A DNA stretch of 64,000 bases, from positions 1-64,000 of the IMG/VR virus record IMGVR_UViG_3300021431_000075; one strand, 5' to 3'. The notes below the pieces were generated by a model. That model was not told the DNA's origin and ran no database searches. It was given only the letters and a program-made list of their open reading frames with translations. Shown in pieces: positions 10,768 to 46,846 of this stretch; the first letter of the stretch is position 1; each line of letters opens with the position of its first letter. The stretch comes from a virus. Lineage: Duplodnaviria > Caudoviricetes. The position numbers were made by a program, and so were the translations under genes.

Positions 10768-10872
10768 AAACGGATTGCATTTGTTTATTTATTTTTAAAC
10801 TGTTTTCTATCTTGATTTTTAAATTGTATTAAAATTATTGCAAAATTTATTGCAAAACTGATTACATTTTTC

Positions 10873-11445: not shown

Positions 11446-13080
11446 TCAAATCATTGAAACAATATTTCCTTCCGAATCAACACATACACCGTCTTTTGAA
11501 ATCAGCAAATCGTCAAACTGCTCTATCCAATTCTTATCAACAAATTTCGGAAACGCGAGATTGCCTTTCCGGTTTATATAATTTATTTCATGACGATAAT
11601 TTTCCACTTTTGCAAAACCGTCCTTAAAATCTTCTGCAGCATGAAACCACTTGTCAGATATATAATGTCCATTCACATCAATAAAGTTATAGTCAGTTCC
11701 ATGATAAACACGAAAGAAACCGTCAGAATAGTTCTTGATTTCTGGATTAATCCATTTTGAAAATATTAAGTTTCCTTTCTTGTCAATCACGTTGTATTTG
11801 TGATTTTTCATGACAACAGCATAGCCGTTCACAAATGGAAAACATTTATCACAATTATTCTCTAAAAGAAAATTTCCACTTGTGTCAATATAGTTCGCAT
11901 CAACTACTGAAGGTTCAACAACTGCAAAACCATCATGGAATTGGTAAGCCTTAAAGAAATGACGATCAGGGCACAAAACATTTCCATTCGTGTCGATATA
12001 GTTCCATCCGTAATCATCATCTTCAAGACTGCCATTAAAGACCGGCGCATATCCTTCGGAAAAATCTTCCACTTCTGTATAATGAAGCTTCTTCCCTCTT
12101 TTATTCTTCAGCAGCTCGCCTTTCGTATTTATGAAAAAAGACTCGTATTTATGTACAACTGCAAGACCATTGCTGAAGTCCCTGCATCCATCAAACCAAA
12201 CCGGAGAGATAGTAGAACCATTTTTGTTTATGAAATTATATTTGATATCCTTGCCATTAATTTTTGATTCGACAACAGCAAAACCTTCATGAAAATCACA
12301 AACATCTTCATACCATGTAGTTGAAACCAAGTCTCCGGTTTCCTTGTCTATAAAATTCCATTTATCATTGCCATCTTTCACATCAACATTCACTCTTGCA
12401 AACCCATCATGGAAATCATAGCAATCCCTGAACCATCCATCTAAAAGAAGATTTCCGTCATAATCAACAAGATTGTAAGTGCCGTCGAAACACAATCTAT
12501 AATTAATGTTATTATTTCTGGTATTACATCTGATGCACGATCTACAAAAACTCTTCAATATCTCGCTCTCACTCTTATCCGGGAAATATATATGAAAGAA
12601 CCAATAAAATGATTCTTCGTCATTGATTTCTATCGATGGATGTTCTTTTATTTCAAATCTACCAAAATTTGTACTAAACTTAAACTCTCCCGGCTTGTCT
12701 TTGATTTTGTCATTAGCAAACTTTAGTCCAATAACATATCCAGAAAACAAAACCGCAATACGATTGATAAGAATGCAAAAATCACCAAGAGACATGTTCT
12801 CTGAATGAAATGATATAACTATTAGACAACTTTTATTACCAGTTAAATCTAACAGACAAACCAGCGGTTCTTTGTATCTCTCTATGAAATGGCTTGACAA
12901 CAACACTTTGTTGACATAACTCTCTATTGTCTGTTTTCCATCATCTCCTCCAAACGAAGTCTTGCAGTCAAACACCAGCATGACATTACAACTATCATCA
13001 CTGGCATCATCCTTAACATCTTCAACATCAACAGCATCGAGAAGACTCTCATTCAACATTTTTGATTTATGTTGCATCAT
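11446..13080 (-). CDS. WG/KWG beta-repeat protein with N-terminal domain
   Basis: Repeated F(H/S)(D/E)G(F/Y)A.V...(W/Y)N(F/Y)ID..G; leader MLNESLLDAVDVEDV; start moved to ATG 13080. Confidence 0.85.
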   Translation of the reverse strand: MMQHKSKMLNESLLDAVDVEDVKDDASDDSCNVMLVFDCKTSFGGDDGKQTIESYVNKVLLSSHFIERYKEPLVCLLDLTGNKSCLIVISFHSENMSLGDFCILINRIAVLFSGYVIGLKFANDKIKDKPGEFKFSTNFGRFEIKEHPSIEINDEESFYWFFHIYFPDKSESEILKSFCRSCIRCNTRNNNINYRLCFDGTYNLVDYDGNLLLDGWFRDCYDFHDGFARVNVDVKDGNDKWNFIDKETGDLVSTTWYEDVCDFHEGFAVVESKINGKDIKYNFINKNGSTISPVWFDGCRDFSNGLAVVHKYESFFINTKGELLKNKRGKKLHYTEVEDFSEGYAPVFNGSLEDDDYGWNYIDTNGNVLCPDRHFFKAYQFHDGFAVVEPSVVDANYIDTSGNFLLENNCDKCFPFVNGYAVVMKNHKYNVIDKKGNLIFSKWINPEIKNYSDGFFRVYHGTDYNFIDVNGHYISDKWFHAAEDFKDGFAKVENYRHEINYINRKGNLAFPKFVDKNWIEQFDDLLISKDGVCVDSEGNIVSMI

Positions 13081-13112
13081 TGCTACGATTTCCAAGATTT
13101 TTGCTTTATCTT

Positions 13113-13129
13113 ATTATAAGATATTTATC
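13113..13129 (-). promoter_or_regulatory. Phage promoter GATAAATATCTTATAAT
   Basis: Exact extended motif. Confidence 0.8.
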
Positions 13130-13143
13130 GAAAACGCTGAAAA

Positions 13144-13815
13144 TCAAACATGTTCGATAAAGACTTCGAACTCATCTTTCGCAAACCTGTCCAACGGCAT
13201 CCGACTTCCGTTTCCGAGTCGAAAATCATATCTCATCCGGTTCTCATATGATTTCAATGCTTTCTCGAAAGTCTTCATATCTGTAAGAATCCAGTTCCCG
13301 TACTTTGATTTCTTGATAATGTACGCGGGCTTCACAATCACCTTGTCTCCGTAAGTCTCAAAATGATGCCAGATGTTTCCATTATAGTTGAAACGGACAG
13401 GCTTCGTCTCGTAGATATAGTTGAACTGCTTTCCTTGTTTTCTTAATGTCTCAAGCCGTTCTTCATAGAAGTACTCAACAAACTCGATATTCCCACATTC
13501 GTCAATAATGTACGGGTACAAATGCCCGAATTTGATGTTCTTCTTTCTTGCAATACTCTTGAACGGTTCCTTGAACGTCTTATGCTCATAGTCAAAGACA
13601 TCGTCAAGAAAAGCAGAAATCTTATTTCCAGACTCGTCGCGCAAAAATCTGTAGCGACCATTCTCAACTGAACCGCTTCCTGCGCCGCCCAGCAAGAACT
13701 GCTCGACATAACCGCGCGGAAACGCATAGATGCCGAGTTCAGCAGGAGCAGAGTGGAAACTGTCATTAATTTTATGTTTCTGCGGCTTCAATGAGCCGTA
13801 TCTGATGAATTGCAT
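13144..13815 (-). CDS. Hypothetical protein
   Basis: 223-aa ORF preceded by host-type TAAATTTG at 13849-13856 (-). Confidence 0.7.
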   Translation of the reverse strand: MQFIRYGSLKPQKHKINDSFHSAPAELGIYAFPRGYVEQFLLGGAGSGSVENGRYRFLRDESGNKISAFLDDVFDYEHKTFKEPFKSIARKKNIKFGHLYPYIIDECGNIEFVEYFYEERLETLRKQGKQFNYIYETKPVRFNYNGNIWHHFETYGDKVIVKPAYIIKKSKYGNWILTDMKTFEKALKSYENRMRYDFRLGNGSRMPLDRFAKDEFEVFIEHV

Positions 13816-17145: not shown

Positions 17146-17162
17146 AATAAATATCTTATAAT
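17146..17162 (+). promoter_or_regulatory. Phage promoter AATAAATATCTTATAAT
   Basis: Exact extended motif. Confidence 0.8.
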
Positions 17163-17194
17163 ACATAAACATTCAGGTCCGTTTTTTAACTGCT

Positions 17195-18865
17195 ATGAAA
17201 TTCAAGAAAAGAAATATTTTCGAAAGCATTCTTGATAGTGTCGAAGCCGATGAGGTTGTTGACATTGATGATGTTTCAATTGAAGAAAAGGCAATTTACA
17301 TTATATACAATGACAACATCACAGACAAAGAAAACACTGATGTCATAATTGAAAGAATTTCAACAATCTTGAAAAAAAGCAACTTCATAGCAAAATTCAA
17401 TAAACCGGAATACATAGATGACGAATATTCCAAAAAATCTTTCTACCTCGACGAAAACTATTATATAATCTTGTTCAGATTCGAACAAAACCCAAATGCG
17501 TCTCTTGATGATTTCTGCAAGTTAATCAGGTTGATAGACATCAACACGAACATTCATTCGATGTTTTATGAAAATGGCGAATTAAACTACCGTCTTGGTT
17601 TCAACACATTCACGCGCTATGATATTTTGATAAACAACAGTTACAATAGGGAAGACGAAAAATTCATAACGTTCTTTAGAAGTTTCTTTCCGGACGCATC
17701 AAAAGAGCAAATTTTGAAATCTTTCATCCGCGCATGCGTTAGGTTCAGCAACGACCAAGCAAAATTCTCACCAGAGCAGAAATGGTTCACAATCAAGATA
17801 GACTTTGATGAGAACTTTGTCAACAAAAACGGAGACTTTATGTTCAAAAAACCGTTGAAATATGTTGATAGATTCTCAGACGGATATGCTCTTATCAAGA
17901 TTGATGACAAAAAACAATATATTTCTGAAAACGGAGTCATACTATCTTCTGACAAATGGCTTCCTGCCAAGTCGTTCGAAAACGGTTATGCGATAGTTCT
18001 GAACCCGAATTATGGTAAAAAGGTCGTCCTCGATTTATACGGCATCATCAACACAAAAGGAGAACTGGTCACAAACACTTGGTACACAAAAATCATATCA
18101 TATTCAAAAGACGGAATCGCTCTTGTGGAAGAAAGATACTATCAAGTGCTAATAGACTTGACCGGAAAGCGAAAGTTTCCAGAATTGCGCAACGGTTATG
18201 AGTACTGCAGTTATTTCACAAACGGATTTGCCATCATCAGAAAAAACGATAGCGGAAACGATTATGTGTACAACTTTGTAGACGAGGAAGGCAACTTGCT
18301 TTATGAAGAATACGAATGGTTCAAATGGTGCATGGACTTCTCTGACGGCTATGCGGTTGTTGAACTGAACGACAATGACGAAGATGCATATAACTACATT
18401 GATGAAAACGGAGACTTTCTTTTATCAAAAGACCGTAAGAAATGCCACAATTTCCATGAAGGTTATGCGGTAGTTTCTGATAGCAAGGACCCTACAAGAT
18501 GGAACTTCATAGACCTGAACGGAAAAGAGATTTCAGATGAATCGTTCTTTGATGTTGTCAGTGATTTCCATGATGGCGTTGCCGTTGTAAAGAACGAAGA
18601 GAACAAGTACACATATATAGGAACAGACGGTAAAATGCTCTTTCCGGGCAAATGGTTCGACTTGTGCTTAAATTTTGAAAACGGAATTGCAAAAATATAT
18701 GTGGATTCCAAAATCAACTTCATTGACAAGAAAGGAAACGAGTTGCTTCCAAAACGTGAATTTATTGATGACGAAGAAGCATGCAAGATAACCAACAATA
18801 TGATTGTTTTCAACAGACTTGGAATCGCTTATGACTTCAATGGAAACCTGATTTCAATAATTTAA
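17195..18865 (+). CDS. WG/KWG beta-repeat protein (array member 1)
   Basis: Leader IFESILDSVEADEV, conserved N-domain, WG repeats, C-terminus DFNGNLISII. Confidence 0.85.
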   Translation: MKFKKRNIFESILDSVEADEVVDIDDVSIEEKAIYIIYNDNITDKENTDVIIERISTILKKSNFIAKFNKPEYIDDEYSKKSFYLDENYYIILFRFEQNPNASLDDFCKLIRLIDINTNIHSMFYENGELNYRLGFNTFTRYDILINNSYNREDEKFITFFRSFFPDASKEQILKSFIRACVRFSNDQAKFSPEQKWFTIKIDFDENFVNKNGDFMFKKPLKYVDRFSDGYALIKIDDKKQYISENGVILSSDKWLPAKSFENGYAIVLNPNYGKKVVLDLYGIINTKGELVTNTWYTKIISYSKDGIALVEERYYQVLIDLTGKRKFPELRNGYEYCSYFTNGFAIIRKNDSGNDYVYNFVDEEGNLLYEEYEWFKWCMDFSDGYAVVELNDNDEDAYNYIDENGDFLLSKDRKKCHNFHEGYAVVSDSKDPTRWNFIDLNGKEISDESFFDVVSDFHDGVAVVKNEENKYTYIGTDGKMLFPGKWFDLCLNFENGIAKIYVDSKINFIDKKGNELLPKREFIDDEEACKITNNMIVFNRLGIAYDFNGNLISII

Positions 18866-18908
18866 CTTTTTTTATAGTTCTTTTCTTGCTTTCAAAATCC
18901 AGTTTCTT

Positions 18909-18916
18909 TATCTTTG
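18909..18916 (+). promoter_or_regulatory. Bacteroidota-type -7 promoter element (TATCTTTG)
   Basis: TAnnTTTG with TTG about 20 nt upstream. Confidence 0.65.
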
Positions 18917-18947
18917 CAAACTGAAATCGATTCATCATTTCATAGAA

Positions 18948-20642
18948 ATGAAGATTGTAACTTTTCTGGATATGAAAGAATTAGAGACAGAATCAGGGCT
19001 ATTAGACACTGTTGAAACGGACGAAGTGAACGATTCGACAGAAAATTATGCATACAAGCATAACATAACGCTGTATCTCAATTACAATACAAACGGTTTT
19101 TATTATCCGGATTTGCATAAATCGTTCGACACACAACGAACGATAACTATGGATTATTTGCCTGCAGACATCGACGGCATTTCAACAATTCTGTCAAAAA
19201 GCGCTTTCATAGACAAGTTCAAAAAACCGGAAATTGCAAACGAATATTTCACAATCCGCATTGAGTTCAGTTCAGACTACATGGTTCTTGACGACTTGTG
19301 CAAACTTGTTCAGCTATTGAGCACCAAACAGTTGTTGTCAATAACAAACCAGTACCAAGATGAAATCAAATGGAAAGCAAGTCTCATTAAAAATGAATAT
19401 CATTCATATGATATAGTTATCTTGCAAGAAGAAGTTCTCATAAATTTCTTCCGACGCTATTTTCCGGAAGCAAGCGACATCGAGATTATCAGATGCTTCG
19501 CGCTCAATTGCATCAAGTACAACAATGTGGTACCGTTCAACCCATATGAACACCAATGGTATGCAATAAAGACCAACAAAAGGGCAAACTTCATAAACGC
19601 CCGCGGTCAGTTCTTTTCAGACACTTGGTTCTTGGACGCGCACAAGTTCAGCGAAGGCTTTGCAGAAGTCAAGTTGAATTCAAACGAATGGAACTACATA
19701 GACGAATTTGGGAATATATTGAGAACAGACATGAACTTCCAGATTGTCGGACGGTTCAAAGACGGTCTCGCGATAGTCCACAACAAAGAACTGAATTGCA
19801 ACTTCATAGACAAAGATGGGAAGTTCCTGTTTGATGAGTGGTTCTTATCTCTTGAGCATTTTAGCGACGGATACGCGCTTGTGAAAAAGATATTTCATGA
19901 TGCAAAATTAGACAAAGGCAACGGCGTTTTTGCAAATTTCATAAACAAAAATGGTTCTCTGTTATTAAAAAACTGGTATGCGGACATTGATTTCGAAACA
20001 TTCATTAACGGTTATTCGATTGTACAGAACGAATTCGGAGTCAATGTAATGGACAAAAACGGTTCATTCATCCTGCCCATCTGGTACTCCGGAATATCAG
20101 AATTCCATGACGGTTATGCGCTTGTAATGAAATATATTAATGTCACCCACGGCTTCTATATTTATAACTACATAGACACGAAAGGAAACTTGCTTCTGGA
20201 AAAATGGAGAAAGTCTGCTCATATCTTTTCTGACGGAGTTGCGGCAGTTACCGGCTCTTACGAAGAAGAAAGTGATGGATATATGTTCATAGACACGAAC
20301 GGATACTACATATCCAAAGACTCATGGCTTGAAATCGTAGACGACTTCCATAACGGCATCGCGATTGTCAGAGGCAAAGACAACCTCATGCACTACATCG
20401 GCAAGGATGGAAAGGACCTGTTTCCTAACAGGCGCTTCAAGAATTGCGAAAGGTTCATCAGAGGCATCGCGAAAGTCGAGAACGAGGATGGCAAAATCAA
20501 CTTCATCAATAACAGAAACAAGCTGTTGCTTTCATCTTGGATTCACAAGCAAACTCCTGTGGTCATCAAGGACAACACAGTCTTTTTCCAGAAAACTGGT
20601 GTCCGGATAGACTATGATGGAAACATCATAGTCAACATATAA
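18948..20642 (+). CDS. WG/KWG beta-repeat protein (array member 2)
   Basis: Leader GLLDTVETDEV; WG repeats; start may be 18972. Confidence 0.85.
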   Translation: MKIVTFLDMKELETESGLLDTVETDEVNDSTENYAYKHNITLYLNYNTNGFYYPDLHKSFDTQRTITMDYLPADIDGISTILSKSAFIDKFKKPEIANEYFTIRIEFSSDYMVLDDLCKLVQLLSTKQLLSITNQYQDEIKWKASLIKNEYHSYDIVILQEEVLINFFRRYFPEASDIEIIRCFALNCIKYNNVVPFNPYEHQWYAIKTNKRANFINARGQFFSDTWFLDAHKFSEGFAEVKLNSNEWNYIDEFGNILRTDMNFQIVGRFKDGLAIVHNKELNCNFIDKDGKFLFDEWFLSLEHFSDGYALVKKIFHDAKLDKGNGVFANFINKNGSLLLKNWYADIDFETFINGYSIVQNEFGVNVMDKNGSFILPIWYSGISEFHDGYALVMKYINVTHGFYIYNYIDTKGNLLLEKWRKSAHIFSDGVAAVTGSYEEESDGYMFIDTNGYYISKDSWLEIVDDFHNGIAIVRGKDNLMHYIGKDGKDLFPNRRFKNCERFIRGIAKVENEDGKINFINNRNKLLLSSWIHKQTPVVIKDNTVFFQKTGVRIDYDGNIIVNI

Positions 20643-20651
20643 TGAAGCCTT

Positions 20652-22319
20652 ATGCAAATGCAAAACAATAATTCAAAGAACATTCTTGACAGCATCATGC
20701 CGGATGAAGTGGAAGATAGCGATTATCTTGAAGGGTACAAGACAATCGCCATCTATTCTATCAACTGCGACATGGCTGACCGCATCGTTCCAATCCTGTC
20801 AAGAAGCAACTTCATAGACAAGTTCAAGCAACCGGAAATAATGCAGAACAACTGCGACGAAATCTGCATCCACTTCATTCAAAACAGCAATGCAAGTATT
20901 GAAGACTTATGCAAGATGATTCAAGCAATCCATATGAAAACGAATCACGAGTGGATGTGGATGAGTTTTGAAAAATGCACGCTTCATTATAAATTGAACT
21001 TCAAAGATTCAGAAGATGACAACAACAAGAATTACGAAGACACCGCATATGACATCACGATTGTCCAGAAAAACGATTTTATGAACTTTTTCAAGAAATT
21101 CTTTCCAGACATTCCAGAAAAAGAGATTCTTAAGACATTCATCCGTTCATGTTTCAAGTACAATAATGCTGCAGACGATTTCTCGCCAGAACACAAATGG
21201 TTCACAATCAAAATCGTTATAAGCATAAAAGATGATGAAATAAACATAAATGATGAAGAAAACTTCATAAACAGAGATGGTGATTTCCTGTTCAACGACA
21301 ACCGGACGATCTTCTCAATCGGCAGGTTCCATGACGGATATGCGAAACTTTTTCTGGAAAACGCATTTTGCTATATTGACGAGAACGGCAAATCCCTTGA
21401 ATATGTCAAGAAGAACGACAAATGTCTTGAGTATATCAACTGTTGTCCGGATCAACGATTCAAGAACGGTTATGCAAAAGTCACAAACCAATATACAAAC
21501 CAAAATTCTGCAAAGTACAACTTCATCAACACAAAAGGCGAAATCATTCTTGACAAATGGTACGACAAACTCGATGAAATCAAGGACGGCACTGTTCTTG
21601 CAACAGAGAACAACCGCCAGAATCTGATAGACATCACCGGCAACAGAAAGTTTCCGGAACTGCCACCTGACTACGAATATGCAAGCCGTTTCATAAACGG
21701 GTTCGCAATAATCAGGACAATATCCGGGCTTCTGCGATACAACATTATAGATGAATACGGAAAGCTTGTTTCTGACGAATGGTTCTATTTATGCAACAAC
21801 TTCTTTGACGGCTGGGCTGTCGTCATGACTTCAAACGAAAAATACAATTACATTGACACAAACGGTTGTTTCATGTTTAAAAACGGACGCTGGATGTGCC
21901 ATAACTTCTGTAGCGGTTATGCTGTCGTATCGGACATCAATAGTATGTACTCGTATAACATCATAGACACGTCTGGAAACGAAATCTCAAAATTTTCATT
22001 TCTGGAAGTCGGAAATCTCAACAACGGTTTCGCTATCGTCAAGAAATCAAGAAATGAATACAACTTCATAGGAATCGACGGAAACCTAATCTCTCCGGAC
22101 AAATGGTTTTCTGAATGCAAAAACTTCATTAACGGCATCGCTCGGGTCGAATCGGAAGATTATCCAAACAAGTTCAATTTCATCGACAAGAAAGGAACAA
22201 TCTTGCTTCCGGAATGGATTGACATCACCGAGCCATTCAAGATAGAAAACAACCTGATTATCTTCAAGAAATTAAACCAGTGCTATGACCTTGAAGGAAA
22301 CTTCATTTCACTAATCTAA
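20652..22319 (+). CDS. WG/KWG beta-repeat protein (array member 3)
   Basis: Leader NILDSIMPDEV; closest to member 1 (FSPE.KWFTIKI, RKFPEL). Confidence 0.85.
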   Translation: MQMQNNNSKNILDSIMPDEVEDSDYLEGYKTIAIYSINCDMADRIVPILSRSNFIDKFKQPEIMQNNCDEICIHFIQNSNASIEDLCKMIQAIHMKTNHEWMWMSFEKCTLHYKLNFKDSEDDNNKNYEDTAYDITIVQKNDFMNFFKKFFPDIPEKEILKTFIRSCFKYNNAADDFSPEHKWFTIKIVISIKDDEININDEENFINRDGDFLFNDNRTIFSIGRFHDGYAKLFLENAFCYIDENGKSLEYVKKNDKCLEYINCCPDQRFKNGYAKVTNQYTNQNSAKYNFINTKGEIILDKWYDKLDEIKDGTVLATENNRQNLIDITGNRKFPELPPDYEYASRFINGFAIIRTISGLLRYNIIDEYGKLVSDEWFYLCNNFFDGWAVVMTSNEKYNYIDTNGCFMFKNGRWMCHNFCSGYAVVSDINSMYSYNIIDTSGNEISKFSFLEVGNLNNGFAIVKKSRNEYNFIGIDGNLISPDKWFSECKNFINGIARVESEDYPNKFNFIDKKGTILLPEWIDITEPFKIENNLIIFKKLNQCYDLEGNFISLI

Positions 22320-22393
22320 TTTTGATTTTCTAACCATTGAACAGCATCCGGAACTGACGCGGATGACGATGCTGTAGAAATAACGTCTAACAA

Positions 22394-22410
22394 AATAAAT
22401 ATCTTATAAT
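22394..22410 (+). promoter_or_regulatory. Phage promoter AATAAATATCTTATAAT
   Basis: Exact extended motif; following bases ACATAAAC also shared with the 17146 site. Confidence 0.8.
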
Positions 22411-22440
22411 ACATAAACGTCTTGCATCAAAACAGTCCAA

Positions 22441-23997
22441 ATGAAAAAACGTCTCTCAGAGAGCATTCTTGCCGACATAGACCCGGACGAAGTTACCGAC
22501 AAGGAAGATTCAGCGGCAATAACCCTGCTTTTCACGTACACTACAATCGTCAGTCCGAACATCGTTGATTTCTTTGCAGACTGCCTGTCGAGATGCAAGT
22601 TCATCGACAAATTCGCCAAGCCCGAACTGCTTCCATACCACAAGCAAGTCAGACTCTCGTTCATTTCAGAACACATGACTCTGGAGAACCTGTGCATGCT
22701 GTACCACCTGACTCAAATCCCTGATTTGGAATATAATATCACGACCGACGGCGGCTTGATTCTCGACAGGGCAATCGTCAACCCGTTCAACACATTCAGA
22801 TTAAGCGGAAGAGACATATTCATATTCGATGAAAAGCAGTTCTTTGATTTCTTCAGATACTACTTCCCGGATGCATCAGAAACAGAGATTATCAAGGAAT
22901 TCATAAGAGCGTATTCAAGATACCAAGACACCGAAACTCCAAGAAACCGAGACAAAGTCTATTCCATAAAGTTTTCAACAAACAAGGCGAACATCGCAGA
23001 CCGGAACGGAAACATCATCCTGAACGAGTGGATGAATGACGTGACCATGTTCAGCGAGGGATACGCAATGATACAGAGAAGCGACAATAAGTGGAACTTT
23101 GTTGACAAAAACGGCAACATTCTTTCACCCGACAAATGGTTCAACAGTGTCCTGAATTTCAGTGACGGGCTTGCAATCGTCACAAATGACAACGGCTCCC
23201 AGAATTTCATAAAGACGAACGGAAAGTTCCTGTTCAGGAAATGGTACAAATCAGTCAATAACTTCAGCGAAGGATACTGCATCGCAAAAAACGCCAATGG
23301 CAAATACAACTTCTTGGACAAGACCGGAAAACCTCTGCTCAAAGAATGGATTCCATACGAGTGCTCCAGTTTAAAGAACGGATACGCTATCGTCATGAAC
23401 GCTGGATGCCAATACAACATAATAGACAGAAACGGCAAACTTGTCCTGAAAAACTGGTTTGACTACATATCAGATGTCAACGACGGATTTGCCGTGGTCG
23501 AATTCGACTCGGACCAGAACTTTGTTGACATGAACGGTCGCTACATATCCGAAAACTGGTGGGCTGACTGCTACGACTTCCATGAAGGCTATGCGGTCGT
23601 CAAGGATGATATGGGGCGTTGGAACTTCATAGGAACAGACGGGAAACTCTTGTTTCCGAACATGCAATTCAACCAATGCAGCGACTTCTGCGAGGGATTC
23701 GCAATCGTCCAAGACAACAACAGGTCATACCACTACATAGACAAGAAGAAGAATGTCATCTCGCTGAGCAAGAAGCCGTTCGAAGCGGGTTTCTCGAAGT
23801 GCGAGCCTTTCAAGGACGGCATCGCGAAAGTGTTCAGAAAAGACGGCTGTTTCAACTTCATCAACAAGAAAGGAACACTGATTTTCAACAACTGGCTTAA
23901 CGAATACACGCAAGTCATTGTTGATGACGGCATGTTCATTTTCAAGAAAACTGGCTCATGCACCGATTTGGAAGGAAACCTGATTTCTATAATTTAA
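22441..23997 (+). CDS. WG/KWG beta-repeat protein (array member 4)
   Basis: Leader LSESILADIDPDEV; WG repeats. Confidence 0.85.
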   Translation: MKKRLSESILADIDPDEVTDKEDSAAITLLFTYTTIVSPNIVDFFADCLSRCKFIDKFAKPELLPYHKQVRLSFISEHMTLENLCMLYHLTQIPDLEYNITTDGGLILDRAIVNPFNTFRLSGRDIFIFDEKQFFDFFRYYFPDASETEIIKEFIRAYSRYQDTETPRNRDKVYSIKFSTNKANIADRNGNIILNEWMNDVTMFSEGYAMIQRSDNKWNFVDKNGNILSPDKWFNSVLNFSDGLAIVTNDNGSQNFIKTNGKFLFRKWYKSVNNFSEGYCIAKNANGKYNFLDKTGKPLLKEWIPYECSSLKNGYAIVMNAGCQYNIIDRNGKLVLKNWFDYISDVNDGFAVVEFDSDQNFVDMNGRYISENWWADCYDFHEGYAVVKDDMGRWNFIGTDGKLLFPNMQFNQCSDFCEGFAIVQDNNRSYHYIDKKKNVISLSKKPFEAGFSKCEPFKDGIAKVFRKDGCFNFINKKGTLIFNNWLNEYTQVIVDDGMFIFKKTGSCTDLEGNLISII

Positions 23998-24040
23998 TGT
24001 TTTTTAACTTTAACTATTTTCCATTTCCAAGTTTTTGGAC

Positions 24041-24048
24041 TATATTTG
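24041..24048 (+). promoter_or_regulatory. Bacteroidota-type -7 promoter element (TATATTTG)
   Basis: TAnnTTTG 24 nt before ATG. Confidence 0.55.
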
Positions 24049-24071
24049 CATCTGCTTAATCCTATCGTGAA

Positions 24072-25640
24072 ATGGAAACAAAAACAGGAAAGCTTCTTGA
24101 TACTGTAGAAGCCGACGAGGTTGTTGATATCGAAAGCAATAAACCGAAATTCAAAATAATCTTGACTGTCCAGTACTTCAGAACTATAGATTCGGTCATC
24201 ATAGTTCACATGGAAGACTGTCTTTCAAGATGCAGATTCATAGACAGTTTCGTCAAACCTGTAATAATTGACAACTATAGCATCAGATTCTCGTTCGTTT
24301 CGGAGAATATGGAGCTTTCAGACTTGTGCGACCTTATCCAGATAATCCAGATTAAACACTTTCCATGCAGAATCACAAACGAAGCATACAAGACTTTATT
24401 CAATGTTCTGTACAATGAATCAAATCAATTCTATCCCGGTTATGACATAAACATCACTTCCGACGCGGCAGTGTCTCATTTCCTGTCATTCATCATGCAT
24501 TATTTTCCAGACACAAACGAAAACGAGATATATAGCATGTTCATTCGCTCGTTTGCAAGATTCACAGACGATGACATATACAGCAATCGTGACAAATTGT
24601 ACACAATATCTCTTGCCAACTCAAGAGCAAATGCCGCTGACAAGAACGGAAACTTCATCATGAAAGAATGGACAAAGGATATCCGCAGTTTCGACGAAGG
24701 CTTCGCGCCCGTCCAGAGAGAAGATGAAAAATGGAACTTCATAAACACGCGCGGCAAGTTATTGAGTCCGGACAGATGGTTCTTCAACGTGTTCACTTTC
24801 AAGGACGGTCTTGCTATCATAGCAGAAGATGATGACAGATACAACTTCATAAAGACAGACGGCACTTTCCTGCTTGACACATGGTACAAGTACATTCAGC
24901 AGTTCAGCGAAGGCTATGCAGCAGTATGCAATAAAAAGAACCAGCACAACTACATAGACAAAGAAGGCAATCTCCTGTTCAAAGACTGGCTGGACTACTG
25001 TGAATGCGGAAACTTCACAAACGGCTTTGCCATCGTATCAAAACAGAACTGCACAAGCAACCTGATCGACAAGTCCGGAAAACTTGTTTCAAAATTCTGG
25101 TTCTCAGACTGCAACAACTTCACAGAAGAAGGTTTTGCAGTCGTTGAAAGAAACTTCAACTACAATTTCATCGACAAGAAAGGAAATCTCCTGTCGCCGT
25201 ACTGGTTCGACATTTGCCATGACTTCCACGAAGGCTATGCCGCTGTCAAGAGCGGCGAACAATGGAACTTCATAGACACGAAAGGAAACAAGATTTTCAA
25301 GAACTTCTCAATAGACAACGGATGCAAAGACTTCTCCGAAGGCTTTGCCATCGTCAAGAGCAAGAACAACAAGTTTCACTTCATCAACAAGAATGCAAAA
25401 CTACTCTCGCTGTGCAAGAAACCACTGGAAGGATTCACAGAGTGCGAGCCGTTCAAGAACGGAATCGCGAAAGTTTTCAACGACAAAGACGAATTCAACT
25501 TCATCAACAAGAAAGGAAGACTGATTTTCAAAAACTGGTTCAACAAATACACACAGGTCATTGTTGAGAACGACATGTTCATTTTCAAGAAATCGGGTTC
25601 GAGAACAGATCTTGAAGGAAACTTTGTTTCCTTTATTTAA
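24072..25640 (+). CDS. WG/KWG beta-repeat protein (array member 5)
   Basis: Leader KLLDTVEADEV; close paralog of members 4 and 6. Confidence 0.85.
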   Translation: METKTGKLLDTVEADEVVDIESNKPKFKIILTVQYFRTIDSVIIVHMEDCLSRCRFIDSFVKPVIIDNYSIRFSFVSENMELSDLCDLIQIIQIKHFPCRITNEAYKTLFNVLYNESNQFYPGYDINITSDAAVSHFLSFIMHYFPDTNENEIYSMFIRSFARFTDDDIYSNRDKLYTISLANSRANAADKNGNFIMKEWTKDIRSFDEGFAPVQREDEKWNFINTRGKLLSPDRWFFNVFTFKDGLAIIAEDDDRYNFIKTDGTFLLDTWYKYIQQFSEGYAAVCNKKNQHNYIDKEGNLLFKDWLDYCECGNFTNGFAIVSKQNCTSNLIDKSGKLVSKFWFSDCNNFTEEGFAVVERNFNYNFIDKKGNLLSPYWFDICHDFHEGYAAVKSGEQWNFIDTKGNKIFKNFSIDNGCKDFSEGFAIVKSKNNKFHFINKNAKLLSLCKKPLEGFTECEPFKNGIAKVFNDKDEFNFINKKGRLIFKNWFNKYTQVIVENDMFIFKKSGSRTDLEGNFVSFI

Positions 25641-25684
25641 CTTTTTTTAAAATTATTTTTCTTGTCGTCAAACATAATTTTCAT

Positions 25685-25692
25685 TATCTTTG
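25685..25692 (+). promoter_or_regulatory. Bacteroidota-type -7 promoter element (TATCTTTG)
   Basis: TAnnTTTG with TTG about 20 nt upstream. Confidence 0.65.
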
Positions 25693-25713
25693 CATCAGCA
25701 AAATGAGATTTAT

Positions 25714-27282
25714 ATGCAAGAAACCAGAACGCTTCTTGATGATGTCCATGTTGACGAAGTCAGCGACGACATAACAACCGAATCCGAGAACTGGATAACA
25801 CTGTCTGCCACAATACCCTATTATGGCAGCGACTCTCTAATTTGTCTTATTCCATTCTTAACGAAGCAACTGTCAAGATGCAAGTTCATAGACGAGTTCA
25901 AGGAACCTGAAATCACATCCAGCATCCTGAACAAGAAACTGACAATCTCGTTCACGACAGAGCATATGACTCTCTCGGACTTATGCGACCTGATTCACCT
26001 GATTAAAATTCCAAACATCAATTTCACGAATGAAGCGAACCAAATCATCATTTGCTACTACAAGGACTCCTCGACACATTCCATACATGACATAATCATC
26101 GGGGGCCAATCATTGAACACGTTCATACCGTTCTTCAACTATTTCTTTCCGGATGCAACAGAGAACGAGATATACAGCGCGTTCATCAGGTCATATGCAA
26201 GAATCCATGACGCCGACATCATAACAGACCGGAACAAGACATACGTCTTATATGCCACACAAAAGGCAATCGCAGCAGACAAGAACGGGAACTTCATCAC
26301 GGACACTTGGTTCCATGACATCAAATGCTTCAGAGAAGGCTTTGCAGCAGTCCAGAGAACAGACCTGAGATGGAACTTCATAAACACCCACGGCAAGTTA
26401 TTGAGTCCTGACAAATGGTTCTTAAGAGTCACAGATTTCGAGAACGGACTTGCAATCGTCACAGATGATACAACCGGCAACGATAACTTTATCAAGCCGG
26501 ACGGCTCGTTCCTGCTCGACAAATGGCAAAATTTCTTATCTCCGTTCAGCGAAGGCTATGCTTGCATCGTAAACGAGAACAACCTTCAGAACTTCATCGA
26601 CATGCACGGCAATGTCCTGTTCAAAAAATGGAACAATTATGAATACGAACCTTTTGTGAACGGTTTCTCTATCATATCGAACAAAAGCAGCGCGCAAAAA
26701 AACCTGATTGACATGACAGGAAAACTCGTCTCGGAAACTTGGTTCTATAAATGCAGCAACTTCACGAAAGAAGGCTTTGCCGCCGTTGCAACCGATAAAT
26801 TCAGTTATAACTTCATAGACAGGAACGGAAACTTTCTGTCAAAAACATCTTTTGATGCTTGCAGGGACTTCTGCGAAGGCTATGCAGCAGTCAATGATGC
26901 CGGCAGATGGAACTTCATCGACACGAATGGAAAGAAGATTTTCAAGACATTCGAGTTCATTAATTGCAAAGACTTCAGTGAGAGTTTCGCAATCGTCGAG
27001 ACACTGAAGCATACATATCTGTTCATCAACAGCAAAGAGAAGTTTCTCTCATTGACACGCCATCCGATCCACGGTTTTGCAATGTGCGAGCCTTTCAAGA
27101 ACGGCATTGCAAAAGTCTATGACAAAGACAAGCAGTTCAACTTCATCAACAAGAAAGGAAAACTGATTTTCAAGAACTGGATTAACAGGTATGAACAGGT
27201 CATTGTTGCCGAAGACATGTTCATATTCAAGAGAAGCGGATTGTGTGTCGATTTTAAAGGAAACATGATATCGACAATTTAA
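25714..27282 (+). CDS. WG/KWG beta-repeat protein (array member 6)
   Basis: Start moved to ATG 25714; leader TLLDDVHVDEV. Confidence 0.85.
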   Translation: MQETRTLLDDVHVDEVSDDITTESENWITLSATIPYYGSDSLICLIPFLTKQLSRCKFIDEFKEPEITSSILNKKLTISFTTEHMTLSDLCDLIHLIKIPNINFTNEANQIIICYYKDSSTHSIHDIIIGGQSLNTFIPFFNYFFPDATENEIYSAFIRSYARIHDADIITDRNKTYVLYATQKAIAADKNGNFITDTWFHDIKCFREGFAAVQRTDLRWNFINTHGKLLSPDKWFLRVTDFENGLAIVTDDTTGNDNFIKPDGSFLLDKWQNFLSPFSEGYACIVNENNLQNFIDMHGNVLFKKWNNYEYEPFVNGFSIISNKSSAQKNLIDMTGKLVSETWFYKCSNFTKEGFAAVATDKFSYNFIDRNGNFLSKTSFDACRDFCEGYAAVNDAGRWNFIDTNGKKIFKTFEFINCKDFSESFAIVETLKHTYLFINSKEKFLSLTRHPIHGFAMCEPFKNGIAKVYDKDKQFNFINKKGKLIFKNWINRYEQVIVAEDMFIFKRSGLCVDFKGNMISTI

Positions 27283-29976: not shown

Positions 29977-31944
29977 TTAGAGACCTGCAGGGTCCACTAC
30001 AAACGTAACATACTGTGTTTCAGGGAAGTAACCTGCATCGACCAGTGCATATCTTGATTTAACCATTAACTTCGGAGCCATAGTTGCCTCTGCTATTGTA
30101 CGGTAGGTTTCTGCGAGTACATAAGGCATAAAATGACAACCAGGTTCATCCTTGCCACCCTTGCGACCTACGAGTACACGAGTATCCTGAGCGTTCATCA
30201 ATGGGTCAACATAAATTGTCATACCGCACATTGTGCCGATTGGATAAAGAGAACCACCGTTCTGGCTGATGTTGTTAGCCAATGGGCTAAACTGATACTG
30301 TGCATTAGTCTGCAAGAGAGTTGCGATAGTGATGTTAGTTACTGCGAATGTAGCAGCACCATAACGACCGCGCTGGAGAATCCAGTTAGAAGCAGCCAAG
30401 AAGTTGCTCTGAATTCTCTTGATGAGAGTGTCACGGTTCTCGAAGCTTGCACCAGCAGGCAAGAACAATGGCTTGAATGGAAGTGCAACGTTCACCTGAT
30501 TAGCATACTCAACACCGTCTTCTGTAGTCATGCTGTTCTGAGGAATAGCAAATGCAGGAGTCATACGGAGAGGACTGCCCGGAGTATAAGAAGGGTCGAG
30601 AGAAATGTTAAGGTTAGCAGTTGGACCTTCAACTTCTACCATCTTGTAGTGGTTCTTCCAACCGAGAGCAAAGAGGCGGCTTGTGATGTGACGGTTGATA
30701 GTCTGAGAGAGATCATTAACAGCTGCGTTCTCAACCATCTTCACAACATCGATACCCCACTGCTTCTGGAGGTCAGTAACCTGCTCCTGAGTAACAGCGC
30801 AACCAACTTCGATAGTACCAACGCTCACGTTCTTAGTGAACAACTTGAGGCTGATCTGACGTGCAGGAGTCTGCTCGCCGACGCCGCGGCTCATTGGCTC
30901 GTAGAGAGTAGTACCGTCCTGATATGTGCCGTACCATGCATCGCGGTCATGTTCGCCAGCACCTGCGAAGCCCTGAATCTGGTCTTCAAGCATGGAGATG
31001 AGGCGTGGAGCCACGAGAGTAACTTCCTTGGTTTCCTCTTCTGTTGCACCAACTGGAGTGTAAACAGTAGTGAAAGTGAGCTGACCCTGTGCGAAGTAAG
31101 CACCGAGAGACTGTGTACCAGCGATAACCTTGAACATTGGGTCGCCGTCGATACGAGACCAGCCGATGAACTCAACGATAAGGTCGCCATCCTCGCCGAA
31201 GTGGTTGTGGTTGATAGAAGTATCAACTGCCTGACCAGCAGCAGCAACGAAAGTAGCGCCAGCAGGAACTGCGGTAGCACCCTTCAGGCTACGCTTGATA
31301 GCAGCAGGAGAAAGAGTGACAGTCTCGCCAGTGGAAGCATCCTCGAGTTCAGCAGGAGCGATAGAAGCCTTGAATGCATGAGGCAAACCATAAACTTCGT
31401 AAGCAGCGTTAGTCTGGCTGTTAGCACGAGGGTTAGCATTCTGTGGAGAATAAGCTGGAGAGTCGCCATAAGGAGCCTTGCTACCAGTGTAAACATAGTC
31501 CATATAAGGAAGAACGCCTGTAGGACCAGAGAGCGGAGTCGTGTTCACGAGCTCGAAGCCGATGGTCTTAGCGGCAACCTTGAGAGCGATAGGGAGCAGA
31601 GTGTTCCACTTGTCGCCGGAACCAAGGTTAGTTGGGTCAGCCTGCTGTGCGCCGGTCATGGTAACAGGAGCAGTGCGAGGGTCGCCCACGCCAGTGGTGT
31701 TGTAAAGGGTGTTGTATGGCTGATAAGTGCCACCCATTGCAGAATAAGCGTTAGCGCCATTCTGGAATGCATCCTCGTTCAGCTTTGCAGTGTTGTGTGC
31801 AAGTGCAGCCATCCACTCAAGCTTCTCAGGATCGTTTACGCCAGTGATCTTCTTAATAGTTGGAGTCCAAGCCTCGGTAATCGCATGGTTGGTACCATTG
31901 ATTGCCTTGTAAGAAGCGGCCAATTTATTAGTTTTGATCTTCAT
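29977..31944 (-). CDS. gp23: Major capsid protein, T4 gp23-like (655 aa)
   Basis: TPLSGPTG..., TQEQVTDLQKQWGID, INRHI, IYVDP...VLVGRKG, FMPY, APKLMVKSRYAL; strong high-expression codon bias; start at ATG 31944 after an A-rich leader; LNE57 maturation-like site. Confidence 0.92.
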   Translation of the reverse strand: MKIKTNKLAASYKAINGTNHAITEAWTPTIKKITGVNDPEKLEWMAALAHNTAKLNEDAFQNGANAYSAMGGTYQPYNTLYNTTGVGDPRTAPVTMTGAQQADPTNLGSGDKWNTLLPIALKVAAKTIGFELVNTTPLSGPTGVLPYMDYVYTGSKAPYGDSPAYSPQNANPRANSQTNAAYEVYGLPHAFKASIAPAELEDASTGETVTLSPAAIKRSLKGATAVPAGATFVAAAGQAVDTSINHNHFGEDGDLIVEFIGWSRIDGDPMFKVIAGTQSLGAYFAQGQLTFTTVYTPVGATEEETKEVTLVAPRLISMLEDQIQGFAGAGEHDRDAWYGTYQDGTTLYEPMSRGVGEQTPARQISLKLFTKNVSVGTIEVGCAVTQEQVTDLQKQWGIDVVKMVENAAVNDLSQTINRHITSRLFALGWKNHYKMVEVEGPTANLNISLDPSYTPGSPLRMTPAFAIPQNSMTTEDGVEYANQVNVALPFKPLFLPAGASFENRDTLIKRIQSNFLAASNWILQRGRYGAATFAVTNITIATLLQTNAQYQFSPLANNISQNGGSLYPIGTMCGMTIYVDPLMNAQDTRVLVGRKGGKDEPGCHFMPYVLAETYRTIAEATMAPKLMVKSRYALVDAGYFPETQYVTFVVDPAGL

Positions 31945-32392
31945 TTTTTTATAACTTAGATTTTTTGATTTGGTCTTGTTTTTCATGTTCGTTCGGCATC
32001 TGCCTGCGTGTTCTTCTTTTACAGCCCGTGTTCTCAACCAGCTTCCGTTCTTGCCGGCTTTCAGCCGCGCAATCTTCTTCTTCAAGGCAGACTTGAACAT
32101 CTTTCCAAAGACCGTTGAAATATCGTTGTATCCAGAAAGGATTCTTTATGTTAATCGAACCATGTTCTCACGCCCGCGTCCCATTCCGCTTTTCCAGTCC
32201 AGCCTGTTATCGGGACCGCTCTTCCATTCTTGCGTAACTTCTTTTATTTGGCGAAGTTGTATGCCGGATTCCGGGTTTCCATTCTCTTGATAGCGCATTC
32301 TCATTTTCCATGCTTCTCGTCAGGATGTCCGGTGGCGCGTGTTCCACGCTTGGCATGATTCAGATTCTACTGAAAGACCGATATTGTTAAAT
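31945..32392 (-). ncRNA. Candidate long structured 5' leader / ncRNA upstream of the capsid gene
   Basis: About 450 nt, GC-richer than other intergenic DNA, no credible ORF, starts right after GATAAATA (32393-32400). Confidence 0.45.
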
Positions 32393-32503
32393 TATTTATC
32401 AATGCGTAAAATGCCAAAAAATCGGTTTAATCATTGAAAAATCGTGAAAAATCGACCTTTTTAGACACGTTTTGCATAGATAACCCCTAAAAAGAACCAG
32501 AAA

Positions 32504-46084: not shown

Positions 46085-46846
46085 ATGATAAGACAAAATA
46101 ATAGAGCTCTTTATGAGAGCATTATGAAAGACGTTGCGAAAGTTATAAAGAGAAGACTCAATGAAGGTCTTTATGACTACGTTACAACAAGTTCATATGA
46201 AGATGTTAATTCCATGCTTTCTAAAGAACGATTGAATAATCTTGAAATACATGAATACCATGAGGGTTTTGCTGTTATTGTAGATAGAGAGAATGATTGT
46301 ATGAATTACATAGATGAAGATGAAAATCTTCTTTCTGATATGTGGTTTGACGAATGTTCTTATTTTAGCGATGGATGCGGAAAAGTAATAAAAGACGACA
46401 AGATTAATTTTATAGACAAGACCGGTAGAATGCTTTTTCCTGAATGGGTTAAAATGAGTGTAGTGGATGTTTATAACTTTCATGAAGGATTTGCTGTTGT
46501 TAAAGAAAGTAAAGGCCAGTACAGATTTAATTATATTGACAAGAATGGAAGATTGCTTTCTAATCAATGGTATTTTGATGCTGGTTCATTCCATAACGGT
46601 TTTGCTAAAGTTAGTATCGGTTTAAACAGTTGGAATTATATAGACAAGAAAGGAAGATTGTTGTCAAAAGAATGGTTTGATTATTGTTGGAATTTTGGCG
46701 ATTCTGTAGATAAGAATCATGCTATTGTGTCAAAAATTGTTGATGAAAAAACATTCAAGAAAAAACGTTTTATGATAGACAAGAAAGGTAGATTGACAAA
46801 GTTTGATCGTTCAAAACAAATAGACAAACCTGTTGAATTGTGGTAA
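46085..46846 (+). CDS. Short WG/KWG repeat protein with YESIMKDVA...LNE leader
   Basis: WG repeats; both TATCTTTG (46017) and GATAAATA (46051) upstream. Confidence 0.85.
   Translation: MIRQNNRALYESIMKDVAKVIKRRLNEGLYDYVTTSSYEDVNSMLSKERLNNLEIHEYHEGFAVIVDRENDCMNYIDEDENLLSDMWFDECSYFSDGCGKVIKDDKINFIDKTGRMLFPEWVKMSVVDVYNFHEGFAVVKESKGQYRFNYIDKNGRLLSNQWYFDAGSFHNGFAKVSIGLNSWNYIDKKGRLLSKEWFDYCWNFGDSVDKNHAIVSKIVDEKTFKKKRFMIDKKGRLTKFDRSKQIDKPVELW

Follow-up and report, generated by a model that had tools for sequence, protein, structure and literature searches.

The window analysed here, the first 64 kb (64,000 nucleotides) of a phage genome of 673,114 bp that ends in terminal repeats (IMG/VR record IMGVR_UViG_3300021431_000075, labelled G000), contains seven paralogous WG-repeat genes that fall into two groups by promoter and by the N-terminus of their products. 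Three genes lie behind a phage promoter motif and encode a leader with a candidate cleavage site of the form hxE (h, hydrophobic residue); the other four lie in units headed by a host-type TAnnTTTG element, and their products lack the site. One protein family is thus probably supplied in two ways, by late copies with the site and by host-type copies without it. The best explanation, that late, protease-processed copies stand beside site-less copies made by the host polymerase, has in our estimate a probability of about one half; timing, cleavage, packaging and injection are all inferred from sequence. The source phage, 673 kb in size and using the standard code, is related to the Lak Prevotella gut megaphages, and its capsid gene shows 72–75% DNA identity to the Prevotella phages Lak-A, Lak-B and Lak-C (megablast).

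All seven open reading frames (ORFs) encode WG_beta_rep proteins of 518–564 residues that match Pfam family PF14903 above its gathering score (E 4e-11 to 2.5e-26). They are named here by the coordinate of the start codon. For comparison we used loci from related metagenomic phages (L010, L011, L038), from a more distant relative (L039) and from further relatives (L040, L041). In the following list an arrow marks the putative cut and a hyphen the place where hxE is missing.

11446..13080, minus strand: WG_beta_rep paralog with full leader, MMQHKSKMLNES↓LLDAVDVEDV
17195..18865, plus strand: WG paralog with full leader, MKFKKRNIFES↓ILDSVEADEV
18948..20642, plus strand: WG paralog without hxE, …ETESG-LLDTVETDEV; likely true start ATG 18972
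20652..22319, plus strand: WG paralog without hxE, MQMQNNNSKN-ILDSIMPDEV; no promoter of its own; sister to 17195
22441..23997, plus strand: WG paralog with full leader, MKKRLSES↓ILADIDPDEV
24072..25640, plus strand: WG paralog without hxE, METKTGK-LLDTVEADEV
25714..27282, plus strand: WG paralog without hxE, MQETRT-LLDDVHVDEV

As the initial annotation had read them, the products of 13080, 17195 and 22441 carry LNES, IFES and LSES directly before (L/I)L(D/A), whereas those of 18948, 20652, 24072 and 25714 keep the LLD half without an (L/I)xE in front of it. Their residues at this place are TESG, NSKN, KTGK and ETRT, none with a Glu at position –2, and the product of 18948 contains a near-miss, LETES. 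Alternative cleavage sites were sought deeper in these four proteins and none was conserved. From comparison with L010, the true start of 18948 is probably the internal ATG at 18972, while the start at 25714 is backed by orthologues beginning MKETRT. Gene 20652 begins 9 nt past the 18948 stop codon and lacks a separate upstream motif; a homologue search for it returned three close orthologues only. The motifs upstream of the array genes are as follows.

13113..13128, minus strand: exact 16-mer ATAAATATCTTATAAT, the long form of [AG]ATAAATA, for 13080; kept in the L038 orthologue
17147..17162, plus strand: exact 16-mer ATAAATATCTTATAAT, for 17195
22395..22410, plus strand: exact 16-mer ATAAATATCTTATAAT, for 22441; conserved in L010 and L038
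18909..18916, plus strand: host-type –7 element TATCTTTG(CA) with TTGC at –23..–20, 31 nt before 18948; conserved in L010
24041..24048, plus strand: host-type –7 element TATATTTG(CA), 23 nt before 24072
25685..25692, plus strand: host-type –7 element TATCTTTG(CA), 21 nt before 25714, with a hairpin and T-run upstream

Motif positions and N-termini together bear out the proposed match between promoter class and cleavage site in all 7 paralogs. The exact 16-mer sits 30–32 nt upstream of the ATGs at 13080, 17195 and 22441, and the copies at 17147 and 22395 have 24 nt in common, namely the 16-mer plus ACATAAAC. Exact copies number 6 in the window and 27 in the genome; at up to 3 mismatches the window contains 11 matches against 1.5 expected. 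The core [AG]ATAAATA occurs in 142 intergenic copies, at about 30 times its density in coding DNA. Within 150 nt upstream of genes it is found 128 times in sense and 36 times in antisense orientation, with a peak 20–40 nt before start codons. It precedes the portal gene, the head maturation protease gene, the gene of a gp13-like head–tail adaptor and many fibre-sized genes. In Lak A1, B3 and C1 the protease gene likewise has a AATAAATA core some 25 nt upstream. Because the same promoter stands upstream of the portal, head-protease and adaptor genes, a reasonable reading is that the [AG]ATAAATA class is late and dependent on a phage factor. T4 late promoters (TATAAATA) are recognised by gp55 together with gp33 and the clamp. 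Like them, the [AG]ATAAATA class has an A/T-only core, ATAAATA, without a –35 element, some 20–40 nt before the start codons of predicted late genes. It differs from them in its first base, which is A or G and not T, and in the extension TCTTATAAT on a third of the phage copies.

Matches to sigma-70 region 2 (Sigma70_r2) were found in two ORFs only, 633132-634052(-) and 458692-459081(-). We also observed a third promoter-like class, TTTTAAACT-N14-16-(T)GTATACT/TATAAT, with about 38 copies genome-wide, some 25 of them well-formed, and with copies in the window at 10793(+), 48021(+) and 51567(-). One copy lies upstream of the small region-2 ORF 458692-459081, and others lie near the larger sigma gene, ahead of its neighbours. 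Possibly these are middle promoters recognised by a phage sigma factor.

The element in front of the remaining units, TAnnTTTG, is the known –7 element of the Bacteroidota primary sigma factor sigma-A (–33 TTTG, –7 TAnnTTTG; PMC7366714). In the phage genome it peaks 20–40 nt before genes in the sense orientation only (35 versus about 10 antisense). The extended consensus of 45 host-type promoters reads TT at –23/–22, an A-rich spacer and TAtaTTTGCA, and the three array promoters fit it. As in sigma-A promoters, TAnnTTTG stands 12–50 nt before the start codon in these three and in 42 other phage promoters, and a TT(T/G) element precedes it by about 23 nt (PMC7366714); the phage copies differ in an extra conserved CA past the motif. 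At the position equivalent to the element at 24041, L010, L011 and L038 carry TACATTTG. Annotated genes behind TAnnTTTG encode DNA methyltransferases, a CCA/polyA polymerase, DUF1848, HD/AAA and DHH enzymes, a VWA protein and a tyrosine recombinase, with no structural genes among them. It is a reasonable reading that the host-type class is able to fire without phage factors; its timing, too, is predicted. A T-run lies upstream of each of the three host-type promoters (18840-18880, 23975-24010 and 25613-25650, plus strand). Together with the conserved C-terminal codons of the preceding gene (…EGN..S.I stop) it forms a hairpin-plus-T tract, convincing only at 25613-25635, and such tracts may be insulating terminators upstream of the host-type promoters.

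Were the TAnnTTTG matches not working, or not early, promoters, the 16-mers would drive late transcription of the whole array, and the copies without a site would be late, uncut products, as they seem to be in L039. The layout of the array gives this some room: six array genes are co-oriented with short gaps and a single convincing terminator-like hairpin between genes, and since they lie on one strand, late transcripts may read through into the host-type genes, a point that counts against two separate supplies. Enrichment of TAnnTTTG in AT-rich intergenic DNA is moreover modest (161 copies versus 142 for a reversed control), and L039 has a site-less copy without the element (see below). We nevertheless consider such an array improbable in view of the sense-strand peak at 20–40 nt, the fit of the three sites to the 45-promoter consensus, down to the TTG at –23 and the CA that follows the motif, the conserved positions in L010, L011 and L038, and the T-run before each site, joined by a clear hairpin before one.

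The initial annotation had proposed that the correlation be checked across the genome. We built a profile from the LLDxVxxDEV half alone, which found 53 proteins, and assigned transcription units by stepping upstream until a promoter motif was reached. In full, the leader has two parts, h-N-E-(S/T/N/D) followed by LLDxVxxDEVxD. A clear hxE is present in 48 of the 53 proteins, 47 of which are encoded in [AG]ATAAATA-headed units and none in units with a host-type promoter only; the remaining hxE gene (292111-293778) lies behind a 2-mismatch copy of the 16-mer without the [AG]. Four proteins clearly lack hxE, namely the products of 18948, 20652, 24072 and 25714. All four are encoded in TAnnTTTG-only units, and they are the only leader genes in such units, so the correlation held genome-wide, with 48 hxE leaders outside and four hxE-less leaders inside host-type-only units. 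The product of 59049 is a weak leader match and ambiguous. Among the 48 hxE leaders, the residues before LLD are L/I/M/V at –4 (47/48), N (38/48), E at –2 (47/48) and S/N/T/D (46/48). No leader position is more invariant than the Glu at –2, which is found in 47 of 48 late-class proteins versus none of the four host-type ones. The stub before the site is 5–29 residues long and poorly conserved, and in L041 it is as short as MNE.

An association was also seen outside the leader family: with leader proteins excluded, an N-terminal hxE occurs in 12 of 25 proteins behind the 16-mer versus 6 of 43 behind host-type promoters (Fisher p = 0.004). Within the WG superfamily (50 proteins), each late-promoter member has one of two hxE leaders. 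The second of these, a basic leader, ends in …RLNE; it has the hNE end in common with the LLD leader, and the remainder is unrelated. A fifth host-type WG gene, 83677-84297, is short, lies behind a weaker host-type motif and encodes no leader. The proteins with the second leader (n = 4) are listed here.

46085-46846, plus strand, in the window: WG-repeat protein with second basic leader MRKQNKRALYESIMKDVAKVVKRRLNE, behind [AG]ATAAATA
G000 301885-302472, 303076-304110 and 660738-661133: WG-repeat proteins with the same second leader, all behind [AG]ATAAATA

Proteases of the gp21 type cut after L/I-x-E (PMC9026906), and the phage encodes a T4-type head with a candidate protease of this kind.

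G000 624491-626329 (L004:94-1932), minus strand: head maturation protease, a 612-residue protease-scaffold fusion
29977..31944, minus strand: T4-type major capsid protein (Gp23 family, PF07068), 655 residues, start MKIKTNK

The protease was recognised by its match to phrog_207 (PHROGs, E 9e-29) and by a weak match to T4 gp21 (E 0.003); searches with Pfam PF03420 and against PDB sequences gave no match. It contains five [LIVM]NE[STN] sites; no other protein in the genome reaches three. The five motifs are of the form hNE(S/N), lack the LLD half and lie in a long, highly charged, scaffold-like tail. R(V/I)NES and YLNES, just past a protease domain of residues 1–170, are conserved in the Lak A1, B3 and C1 orthologues at 47% identity. 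In the capsid protein of all four phages compared, a variable N-terminal extension ends at AI(T/Y)E↓(A/S)W and is followed by a highly conserved body, a boundary that echoes T4 gp23; AKLNE↓D is present in the capsid protein as well. The portal is likewise of T4 type (PF07230). Together these sites suggest that hNE(S/T/N/D) is most likely the cutting site of the T4-type head maturation protease, and we regard cleavage at hxE in the leader proteins as likely, if well short of certain.

Some further observations concern the head genes. A papain-family gene (Peptidase_C1) lies directly 3′ of the T4-type portal gene, at G000 658475-659134(+) (L001:3155-3814), behind an exact 16-mer. This gene beside the portal was considered as gp21 and rejected, its product being a papain-like peptidase; it stands near the position of gp21 in T4, with the true head protease 32 kb away. 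The Lak-B3 orthologue of the protease has six in-frame TAG codons and the G000 copy none. For the capsid gene, the first-start rule gives an over-extended ORF (29977-32100, minus strand), and relatives place the start at ATG 31944; an untranslated leader of about 450 nt separates this ATG from a GATAAATA core at 32393-32400.

A different reading of the leader is that hxE is not a cleavage site and that the stretch of about 20 residues is an amphipathic or acidic docking or assembly motif, which in the host-type version would be one turn shorter. Hydrophobic positions at –4, 0, +1, +4 and +9 would suit a helical repeat, the conserved part reaches far past the putative cut, the leader is disordered in the structural model described below, and with a stub such as MNE a cut would remove three residues only. 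Against this, the tetrapeptide occurs without LLD five times in the head protease-scaffold, with two of these sites conserved across Lak phages, and it closes a second, unrelated leader (…RLNE). A matching I-x-E boundary is found in the capsid protein, and no other leader position exceeds the Glu at –2 in invariance. A docking role without cleavage is accordingly one to which we give little credence.

Comparison with relatives shows how durable the two states are. In the orthologues in L010, L011 and L038 both promoter class and leader state are kept, and LLDxVxxDEV is retained position for position in host-type paralogs and their orthologues at 76–80% identity, which implies that this part has a function independent of the site and of late expression. 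L040 and L041 contain late-promoter, hxE-positive leaders only. A search for related loci with the paralog alignment returned two distant loci only, and in the GenBank Lak A, B and C genomes (26% GC) the search for orthologous arrays found no close WG paralogs, the megablast matches being to the capsid gene. G000 itself has a GC content of 40.7%, versus 26% in these published genomes. Unlike the TAG-recoded Lak A, B and C, it uses the standard code, with 91% coding density under table 11 and five tRNAs, none of them a suppressor. In-frame TAG codons, considered as an independent marker of late genes, were therefore unusable in G000 and were dropped. As a separate observation, TnpB/Cas12f-like (OrfB_IS605) genes adjoin the WG arrays in two related phages (L010:1-1126 and L041:4645-5907).

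How often the states have changed bears on how much the correspondence can carry. A tree computed without the leader, ((18948,(17195,20652)),(22441,(24072,25714))), implies three state changes. The two 16-mer cassettes of the array have 24 nt and an MK.KKR..ES start in common, and the relationships among the cassettes disagree with those of the protein bodies in this tree. The simplest reading is that two cassette types were moved or retained by duplication and conversion, together with a separately decayed start in 20652.

A rival account of this history is linkage without function: a single 5′ cassette would have been copied among tandem paralogs, and the missing hxE would be a collateral loss that is silent on delivery. 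Promoter and first 6–10 codons lie within about 60–100 bp, the host-type cassettes are alignable with M(Q)ETKT-like starts throughout, and both the resemblance of the two 16-mer cassettes and the disagreement with the body tree would follow. Such hitch-hiking would, however, leave several observations aside. The state has been held in three diverged relatives, where LLDxVxxDEV is invariant and no hxE has re-evolved; 20652 has a different start that decayed independently; the association extends genome-wide beyond the leader family; and a separate, leaderless host-type WG gene is present. On balance we think it unlikely that linkage is the whole account.

Several points nonetheless weigh against the reading we prefer, that of late, processed copies beside host-polymerase copies without a site. 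The three host-type 5′ intergenic regions are alignable and all lead into M(Q)ETKT-like starts, so that these cassettes, common in sequence and in start, probably have a single origin; the promoter and the lack of a site may have spread from it jointly, as one unit of about 100 bp. The number of independent events would then be about one to two, not four, and with promoter and site physically joined in one cassette, a 7-of-7 count overstates the statistical weight. In L039, a WG paralog (11616-13178, MNISTNKS-ILDDIEIDDV) has neither hxE nor TAnnTTTG and lies 31 nt past a late-promoter, hxE-positive paralog, which means that a missing site need not go with a host-type promoter. The conserved leader motif lies after the putative cut and is present in both classes, and is therefore not a removable targeting peptide in the style of T4. 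Finally, a search of the phage for a homologue of T4 gp55 gave no match, a difference from the T4 late system that leaves the two region-2 ORFs as the only sigma-70 candidates.

As to what the proteins do, an AlphaFold model of the 24072 product (mean pLDDT 86) has a disordered leader (residues 1–25), an alpha/beta domain (28–165) and beta-hairpin repeats (177–521). A Foldseek search with this model returned generic propellers only (TM about 0.3), so no function can be assigned to the product from its fold. Judging from the model, the WG proteins look like beta-repeat binding proteins, and the term effector, which the initial annotation had applied to them, found no enzymatic signature to rest on. 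Its division of the duplicates into a late, packaged, injected set and an early, cytoplasmic set thus stands in part: the promoter classes and hxE as a protease site are backed by the sequence, packaging, injection, early timing and a cytoplasmic location stay predictions, and the effector role is not supported.

In the mechanism that we favour, genes with an intact site would be transcribed from [AG]ATAAATA, often in its 16-nt form ATAAATATCTTATAAT. The variable stub ending in h-N-E↓(S/T/N/D) would be cut off by the head protease, and LLDxVxxDEVxD would stay on the protein afterwards; the late copies are probably part of the matured virion cargo. In four WG paralogs, belonging to three promoter units, the 5′ cassette instead pairs a promoter of sigma-A type (TTG…TAnnTTTGCA) with a short start resembling M(Q)ETKT. 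These site-less copies could be made by unmodified host polymerase and would not be processed by the head protease; being unprocessed, they probably lie outside the matured cargo. More tentatively, the leader may be a two-part address in which hNE↓S, as the processing site, serves the virion route only and LLDxVxxDEV is a working N-terminal module that the mature protein needs wherever it acts. A swap of a cassette of about 100 bp would turn a packaged, injected binder into one made at once by the host polymerase. We regard this extended version as possible but on the doubtful side.

The T4 internal proteins IPI, IPII and IPIII and the T4 protein Alt carry capsid targeting sequences that are cut by the gp21 prohead protease (PMC9026906, PMC3012670). 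The Lak relative resembles this system in having a T4-type capsid protein, portal and head maturation protease, genes of a predicted late class with a short N-terminal peptide ending in (L/I)-x-E, and a tag common to many unrelated or diversified candidate cargo proteins (PMC9026906, PMC3012670). It differs in the number and size of tagged proteins, 53 and mostly 400–780 residues long, and in the Asn at P2 of its consensus. The T4 targeting sequence, moreover, comprises about 10 residues before the cut and is removed, whereas here the stub is variable, with lengths down to 3–5 residues, and a conserved, acidic motif of 12 residues follows the site and would stay on the mature protein.

Alt, a T4 ADP-ribosyltransferase, is recorded as being carried in the T4 particle. 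The T4 ADP-ribosyltransferases ModA and ModB are early proteins made after infection. By analogy, the division between Alt and ModA/ModB is the closest precedent, since one family would in both cases be present as virion cargo and through early host-type transcription, as predicted here. The T4 paralogs are old, very divergent and of known biochemical activity; in the Lak relative the split lies inside a young tandem array (33–53% identity) and is marked by swapped 5′ cassettes. Given this precedent, the locus extends a known principle and does not establish a new type of system.

Lak-like megaphages are uncultivated, and their gene timing and virion cargo are almost unstudied. The analysis yields predictions as to which proteins are in the particles, where they are cut and which promoters fire in uninfected cells, and the catalogue of host-type, late and third-class promoters helps to annotate Lak-like genomes. 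The locus splits a leader tag of 53 proteins into one half that tracks the late promoter and the protease sites and another that is kept regardless. If the leader is a two-part address, two routes would supply a family of binders from the moment of DNA entry, and megaphages would have in cassette swapping a general means of retiming their cargo genes.

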